Below are positions 2,969-3,342 of a stretch of 5,151 nucleotides of DNA, piece by piece. Source of the stretch: a virus. Lineage: Duplodnaviria; Heunggongvirae; Uroviricota; Caudoviricetes. Under the pieces are notes generated by a model. That model saw only the letters and a list, made by a program, of their open reading frames with translations, had not been told where the DNA came from and made no database searches. The number at the start of each line of letters is the position of its first letter. The first letter of the stretch is position 1. The translations under genes and the position numbers were made by a program. The DNA is taken from IMG/VR virus record IMGVR_UViG_2537561714_000007; one strand, given 5' to 3'.

Positions 2969-3342
2969 TTTCATCTCCTAAATCTCTTTTCTCTTACCTA
3001 AAGAAACAGCAGGCTGGGTCAGCCCTAACAACTTCAAGTGCATCGGTCAGAGAAAGCTCCGTGCTATACAGGTGTTATTTCATATCTTTTTGCATCCAAT
3101 AAATTTTCCATCTGTCCAGAGAGCGGATGCACTTGATTCTTGTTGATGGCAGGACGTTTTTTCACCTGCCTCACCCTGCCATACAGGACGCTGCTCACCG
3201 ATATCTATCGTCCGGTCATTGATGTTATAGACAATATCCAGATCATTACGGATATACTCAGATGGCCTTATGCTTTCAATGAATAGATGAACTTCTTTTT
3301 GACCGCTTGATACTCATGGCCATTAAACTCCATCTATCCTCT

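Follow-up and report, generated by a model that had tools for sequence, protein, structure and literature searches.

A very probable DUF3024 pseudogene downstream of cI in a lambdoid phage immunity region

The stretch of phage DNA analysed here (5,151 nucleotides, IMG/VR virus record IMGVR_UViG_2537561714_000007; referred to below as the window) very probably contains, directly downstream of cI, a decayed full-length copy of a DUF3024 gene (PF11225 / phrog_3467 / PADLOC PDC-S43). The copy lies on the minus strand at positions 2994-3333 and is 340 nt long, compared with 342 nt in intact homologues, and we regard it as an ordinary pseudogene. This assignment is based on homology to intact genes, on the lesions that distinguish the copy from them, on synteny, and on the absence of an intact allele of the window type. 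The window copy appears to have lost its function.

The list of open reading frames and an Rfam scan together identified the window as a lambdoid immunity region. The minus strand carries the cIII thermoregulator RNA element (RF01804, 340-398; a full-length match with 88.5 bits in the whole-window scan), and the list of open reading frames places N at 1319-1663 and an ORF of 173 aa at 2320-2841 on the same strand. A lambda-type cI gene follows at 3343-4056 (minus strand, stop codon 3343-3345), and cro (4157-4357, plus strand) is followed by cII and the beginning of O. A gap of 501 nt (2842-3342) separates the 173-aa ORF from the cI stop codon, and the longest ORF within this gap has 48 aa. The original prediction that about 500 bp after cI contain no intact gene was therefore correct.

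In DNA alignments the interval at 2994-3333 was collinear, from ATG to stop codon, with the 342-nt genes of phages 933W (L0084) and SE1 (gp24) and of E. coli Z1323CEC0019 and 2013C-4974. Alignment to the intact genes revealed exactly two 1-nt gaps and one change of TGG to TAA. The first lesion (3295-3301, minus strand; alignment column 136) is a 1-bp deletion at codon 12, within the A-run GTC-AAAAAG-AA; intact genes have GTCAAAAAAGAA, GTAAAAAAAGAA or GTCAAAAAGGAA at this site. The second (3159/3160, minus strand; alignment column 278) is the loss of one C at codon 59, which converts GAAACAAAC to GAAA-AAAC. Both deletions recurred in the alignments with the genes of Z1323CEC0019 and 2013C-4974. 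The third lesion, TGG to TAA at codon 87 (3075-3077, minus strand), removes a tryptophan that is invariant in 18 intact family members.

A codon-by-codon map aligned all 113 codon positions with the intact genes and placed the ancestral stop codon at 2994-2996. The ancestral Shine-Dalgarno sequence (3337-3342, minus strand) reads AGAGGA in the window and GGAGGA in intact homologues; as originally proposed, it stands directly after the cI stop codon, 3 nt upstream of the ATG. The window, 933W and SE1 share the conserved surrounding sequence TTTGGGTAA(A/G)GAGGATAGATGG; Z1323CEC0019 and 2013C-4974 have it too, except that their cI gene stops with TGA. Because the ancestral ribosome-binding site, ATG, stop codon and following terminator have all been kept, nothing has been truncated. 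The interval had been described as the remnant of a gene after cI, truncated or frameshifted; it is indeed a remnant with frameshifts, but not a truncated one.

Two open frames within the interval are the first and second pieces of this one broken gene. The residual 21-aa ORF (3268-3333, minus strand) begins at the ancestral start codon and consists of 13 residues matching the ancestral protein, followed by eight out-of-frame codons and TAA. Its sequence, MEFNGHEYQAVKKKFIYSLKA, was exactly as first reported, but the reported coordinates need a shift of 14 nt: the ATG is at 3331-3333 rather than 3317-3319, and the ORF ends at 3268 rather than 3254. The second piece is a start-less frame on the minus strand, which runs for 77 sense codons from 3313 down to 3083, rather than for the approximately 56 codons first estimated, and stops at a TAA at 3080-3082. 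No ATG, GTG or TTG giving at least 20 aa was found in it. The two frames are in a -1 relationship, with the switch at the run GTC-AAAAAG. Down to 3161, up to and including codon 58, the start-less frame coincides with the ancestral frame of DUF3024, and after the second lesion it continues as an out-of-frame tail of 26 codons. Codons 60-113 make up the third piece, which is in the remaining frame and ends ...NVLPSTRIKCIRSLDRWKIYWMQKDMK, stop, HLYSTELSLTDALEVVRADPACCFFR, stop. The base loss at codon 12 would leave the ancestral ribosome-binding site and ATG driving a 21-aa peptide. Since both signals are kept they probably still load ribosomes, so that the 21-aa ORF is probably translated and the rest of the gene would remain untranslated.

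The repaired translation matched the Pfam DUF3024 profile over positions 4-111 of 112 with 89.1 bits (E 2.8e-25; gathering cut-off 24.9 bits), and matched phrog_3467 at 2.8e-55. The 84-aa join of the first two pieces also passed the DUF3024 gathering score, with 28.7 bits, and tblastn with this join led to annotated genes that encode 113 aa without interruption and directly follow cI. As the two 1-bp deletions and the TGG to TAA change leave no uninterrupted DUF3024 reading frame, the window copy was filed as a DUF3024 pseudogene and not as a functional member of the family.

The homologues found in phages (933W L0084, AU6Stx1 and SE1) are coding genes, and the search for intact relatives proposed at the outset was thus successful. 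Intact DUF3024 genes are located directly after cI and on the same strand in 933W, AU6Stx1, SE1, Z1323CEC0019 and 2013C-4974, where they adjoin several different types of cI, including the lambda type. The orthologues are 933W L0084 (AAD25429.1), AU6Stx1 gp21 (annotated as 'DUF3024 domain-containing protein'), Salmonella phage SE1 gp24, and the E. coli proteins WP_024237241.1 and WP_029793531.1. The window copy has the same post-cI position, strand, RBS context and length as these genes, and is approximately 82% identical to them in nucleotide sequence and 81-82% identical in amino acid sequence after repair. The orthologues are intact ORFs of 113 codons, whereas in the window copy two 1-bp deletions and a nonsense codon interrupt the frame and six invariant residues are changed.

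In the prophage of E. coli Z1323CEC0019 the gene order is cI, intact DUF3024, a terminator identical to that of the window, and the same 173-aa gene with one mismatch. The DUF3024 gene of this prophage is 933W-like to approximately window position 3040; from there to the far end of the 173-aa gene, terminator included, only three positions differ from the window. This pattern marks a recombination junction inside DUF3024 near window position 3040, which coincides with no lesion and is the only such junction seen in the gene. In E. coli 2013C-4974 a lambda-type cI is followed by intact DUF3024, an L0083-like gene and stk, and the same pairing of cI and DUF3024 was present in seven more complete genomes.

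Similarity to Sakai-type Stx phages (99.4%) is unbroken over window positions 1-3753, reaching into the C-terminal half of cI, and similarity to lambda (98.4%) spans 3347-5148, with its left end at the cI stop codon. Because the C-terminal half of cI is common to both, the window looks like a hybrid with a crossover inside cI. None of the phage records and complete E. coli genomes in the collections searched contained the exact combination of the pseudogene with a lambda-type cI; the record of phage Nil2 carries a Sakai-type cI. In phages PA45 and phi330 the alignment was split in two somewhere within window positions 1-3753, and mobile-element proteins are located under the PA45 match. We also observed a stretch, GAAGAGACGTTTGGGT(A/G)A(A/G)GAGGATAGATGG (3325-3360, minus strand), that comprises the last ~18 nt of cI together with the DUF3024 RBS and ATG. 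It is common to phages whose cI genes are otherwise different (lambda-type, 933W-type, Sakai-type and, in part, SE1), and could be a conserved linker for module exchange.

The broken copy is widespread. Window positions 2842-3342 were 100% identical in VT2-Sakai, Nil2, Stx2 II, PA4 and others among the phages listed, and matches of at least 99% were found in 44 phage records and 234 complete E. coli replicons. The presence of identical copies in so many phages and replicons shows that the lesions are not sequencing errors. A further 158 complete E. coli replicons contained copies that were 80-90% identical; the 24 listed copies all bear the annotation DUF3024 domain-containing protein, and the two that were aligned were of the 933W type. 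In the lineage that comprises the VT2-Sakai / Sp5-type Stx phages and the window, the gene was very probably inactivated at three places.

Of the differences between the window copy and 933W, 10, 10 and 40 fall at codon positions 1, 2 and 3, respectively, and dN/dS is 0.086, which indicates that during most of its past the window copy was evolving as a protein-coding gene. When the first ~85 codons are compared, dN is 0.085 between the window copy and either 933W or SE1, compared with 0.020 between 933W and SE1 at similar dS. The window copy breaks six of 36 invariant columns (A2E, Q41R, Y69C, R82Q, W87 to stop, and G113R); in a leave-one-out count, the 18 intact members break between none and two each. 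The raised dN and the broken invariant residues may be read as signs of relaxed constraint. The best full-length match in a collection of 5.8 billion protein clusters was 82% identical, and no intact allele of the window type was found in that collection; the closer matches were fragments of 80-84 aa, three of four of which carry the tail created by the second lesion. One of these fragments (P0020) has a 933W-type 5′ end and an intact A-run, with the second lesion still present. In E. coli O157:H7 ECP19-798 an IS1203 element (IS3 family) is inserted inside the DUF3024 pseudogene (positions 1233-2446 of locus L009, at approximately window position 3245), showing that the pseudogene is dispensable. 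All pseudogene copies in the searched collections were at least 99% identical, so that their comparison is too shallow to measure any present-day constraint, for example as an RNA element.

The pseudogene is followed, 26 nt after its stop codon, by an intrinsic terminator (2943-2968, minus strand), with a hairpin at 2951-2968 and a U-tract at 2945-2950. The hairpin has a 7-bp stem, GGUCGCA/UGCGGCC, and a GAGG loop, and is followed by U6. A simple promoter and terminator scan omitted this hairpin; folding confirmed it (z = -3.97; none of 200 shuffled sequences folded as well), in agreement with the original prediction of a terminator at these positions. The hairpin and U-tract suggest a rho-independent terminator at the probable end of the cI transcript. 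No promoter-like site was found inside 2969-3342 in the promoter scan. The interval is most likely the transcribed 3′ untranslated part of the cI mRNA, which would be transcribed from pRM/pRE and end at this terminator.

The terminator of Z1323CEC0019, identical to that of the window, follows an intact DUF3024 gene. In 933W the hairpin after DUF3024 is conserved (positions 2843-2900 of locus L004, compared with window 2943-2993), as GGTCGCAGAGATGCGGCC, and lacks the U-tract. The 933W operon extends past L0083, stk and L0081 as far as the annotated tM. It is thus in the Sakai-type arrangement alone that a hairpin of this common origin appears to serve as a terminator.

Beyond the terminator lies the 173-aa gene, the product of which corresponds to Sakai ECs_1184 and Nil2 ORF22 and belongs to phrog_2602. 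It had no match in PADLOC, and a phage-integrase N-terminal SAM-like domain was found only below threshold (E 0.047). Because this gene is located behind the cI terminator, it is probably transcribed from a promoter of its own. The stretch that separates the terminator from the gene (2893-2943) contains a cluster of overlapping palindromes: TTGCATGCAA (2893-2902), CAAGACT/AGTCTTG (2900-2915) and TCTTGA/TCAAGA (2911-2932). These palindromes resemble operators at which a regulator of the 173-aa gene would bind, and the stretch is identical in Z1323CEC0019.

We considered whether the decayed sequence might have been co-opted, as a stability element in the cI mRNA 3′UTR, as a 3′UTR-derived sRNA, or as the source of a functional 21-aa micro-protein. 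With cI on one side and a strong terminator on the other, the interval is probably transcribed in every lysogen; the retained ribosome-binding site and ATG make translation of the 21-aa ORF probable; and the interval contains an 8-bp perfect inverted repeat (3146-3182, ATGGCAGG at 3146-3153 and CCTGCCAT at 3175-3182). This pair is longer than, and additional to, the repeat GGCAGG...CCTGCC that had been predicted and was recovered (3148-3153 and 3165-3170). However, the repeat covers conserved codons 51-54 (V-W-Q-G) and 62-64 (L-P-S), and the intact 933W and SE1 genes contain its core TGGCAGG...CCTGCCA as well, so that the repeat requires no separate explanation. A whole-window Rfam scan at a permissive threshold gave no match inside the interval and detected only the cIII thermoregulator, and the RNA fold of the whole interval was unremarkable (z = -1.70). 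The 21-aa ORF exists only in copies that are at least 99% identical, and eight of its residues are by-products of the frameshift; it is not a conserved micro-protein, whereas conservation as such would have refuted the original reading. The natural IS insertion also argues against co-option, which we consider very unlikely. EHEC Hfq-bound prophage sRNAs that have been placed on the prophage map lie near PR'/stx (PMC4104026). Term searches of the text of that paper, and of another paper on EHEC prophage sRNAs, turned up neither the immunity region nor the repressor.

There is similarly little likelihood that the broken gene has been kept for a reason, whether because loss of DUF3024 was adaptive in Sakai-type Stx2 prophages or because the ~375-nt relic serves as a regulatory cI 3′UTR or as the source of a truncated peptide. 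If the relic were regulatory, as 3′UTR or through the peptide, it would tune the level of repressor and hence Stx-phage induction.

Functional expression through recoding would require -1 frameshifts at C-AAA-AAG and at the second A-run, as well as read-through of the UAA codon; a weaker version postulates a single -1 shift that yields a functional 84-aa protein. The first lesion, at GUC-AAA-AAG, resembles the A-AAA-AAG slippery heptamer of dnaX, and the -1 frame is open for 77 codons. Some -1 slippage at this site into the ancestral frame may occur, and would yield a product of 84 aa. Judged from the heptamer sequence alone, C-AAA-AAG is imperfect, and a trans-frame product made there would meet the second lesion and the UAA codon, so that this frameshift alone would give no full-length product. 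A full DUF3024 product needs three independent recoding events; the second site, GAA-AAA-ACG, contains no X-XXY-YYZ heptamer in the required frame; and UAA is the strongest of the stop codons. In addition, no recoding is needed in the intact relatives, the window copy has changes at six invariant residues, an IS insertion in the pseudogene is tolerated, and an 84-aa product would lose three of the five predicted beta-strands. A functional product through recoding is therefore extremely improbable, in the full version as in the weaker one.

Next to no probability attaches to the original prediction that the interval is the remnant of a gene in the rexA position, truncated or frameshifted by insertion of the 173-aa cargo gene, and that it marks the right-hand junction of that replacement: the interval does occupy the position of rexA in lambda, similarity to lambda does stop at the cI stop codon and the gene after cI is indeed frameshifted, but the gene has its full length and retains a stop codon and a terminator of its own, and Z1323CEC0019 carries intact DUF3024 beside the same neighbours, so that the downstream cargo did not break the gene. 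Nor did the interval show similarity, in nucleotide or in protein sequence, to rexA or rexB of lambda or to the spacer between cI and rexA. Searches against the lambda region left of cI by blastn (word size 7), tblastx and blastp matched just the last 14 nt of cI (best E 0.013; protein E > 1). As for the junction, similarity to lambda ends at ~3347 and the Sakai-type similarity runs on to 3753 inside cI. The lambda rexA-rexB genes and 933W stk share with DUF3024 the slot downstream of cI, on the cI strand, and the likeness is positional only.

We therefore return to the DUF3024 pseudogene and to what its intact relatives might do. In lambda, rexAB are exclusion genes expressed in the lysogen from a slot that is transcribed with cI. 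Many lambdoid and P22-like prophages have DUF3024 immediately behind cI and in the same orientation, and the gene would probably be expressed in the lysogen from the repressor promoters, like rexAB. The PADLOC model PDC-S43, a single-gene 'phage defence candidate', is matched along its whole length by the intact 933W homologue (4.4e-41); the window copy is inactivated. PDC systems are predicted candidates obtained by 'guilt by embedding' (bioRxiv 10.1101/2024.01.29.577857). A host-protective or exclusion role of intact DUF3024 is plausible by analogy, since the slot after cI is that of lambda rexAB and 933W stk, a similarity of position only. A literature search returned no paper on DUF3024, nor on L0084 with 933W, and for PDC-S43 one listed paper gave a bare PADLOC read-out in a panel of O157 strains.

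An AlphaFold2 model of an intact member (P0001; mean pLDDT 85, pTM 0.77) has a single helix at the N-terminus and, after it, an antiparallel sheet of five strands. Foldseek with this model found nothing at E <= 0.001 in PDB or BFVD, and among the top 50 hits in each database TM-scores were mostly below 0.4 and at most 0.52. As modelled, the DUF3024 fold thus yields no functional lead. A likeness to AvrPto (phmmer against PDB, E 0.07) was weak and was taken as chance.

The pseudogene label was absent from the annotation records examined, which contained either no feature or short 'hypothetical protein' fragments. The latter include WP_434087148.1 (3080-3241, minus strand), a PGAP 'hypothetical protein' of 53 aa with an apparent CTG start, and a 44-aa ORF with a GTG start in phage PA4 (3064-3198, minus strand). 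In AP005153, ORF B57 (2759-3001, plus strand) is an opposite-strand ORF over the pseudogene region. The window copy resembles other prophage pseudogenes that arose by homopolymer slippage in its loss of a base from an A-run, its added point lesions and its retained regulatory signals; its sole peculiarity is the lack of a pseudogene annotation in the records examined. It is a previously unannotated pseudogene of a known family and does not challenge current understanding.

The finding corrects the annotation of VT2-Sakai/Sp5-type Stx phages and of more than 200 complete E. coli O157 genomes by assigning a DUF3024 pseudogene to the cI-proximal gap that is now left empty or filled with spurious 'hypothetical proteins' of 44, 53 or 80 aa. 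The slot after cI, which holds rexAB in lambda, holds DUF3024 in many other prophages, and 933W L0084 is a convenient intact allele with which the candidate PDC-S43 could be tested for phage exclusion.
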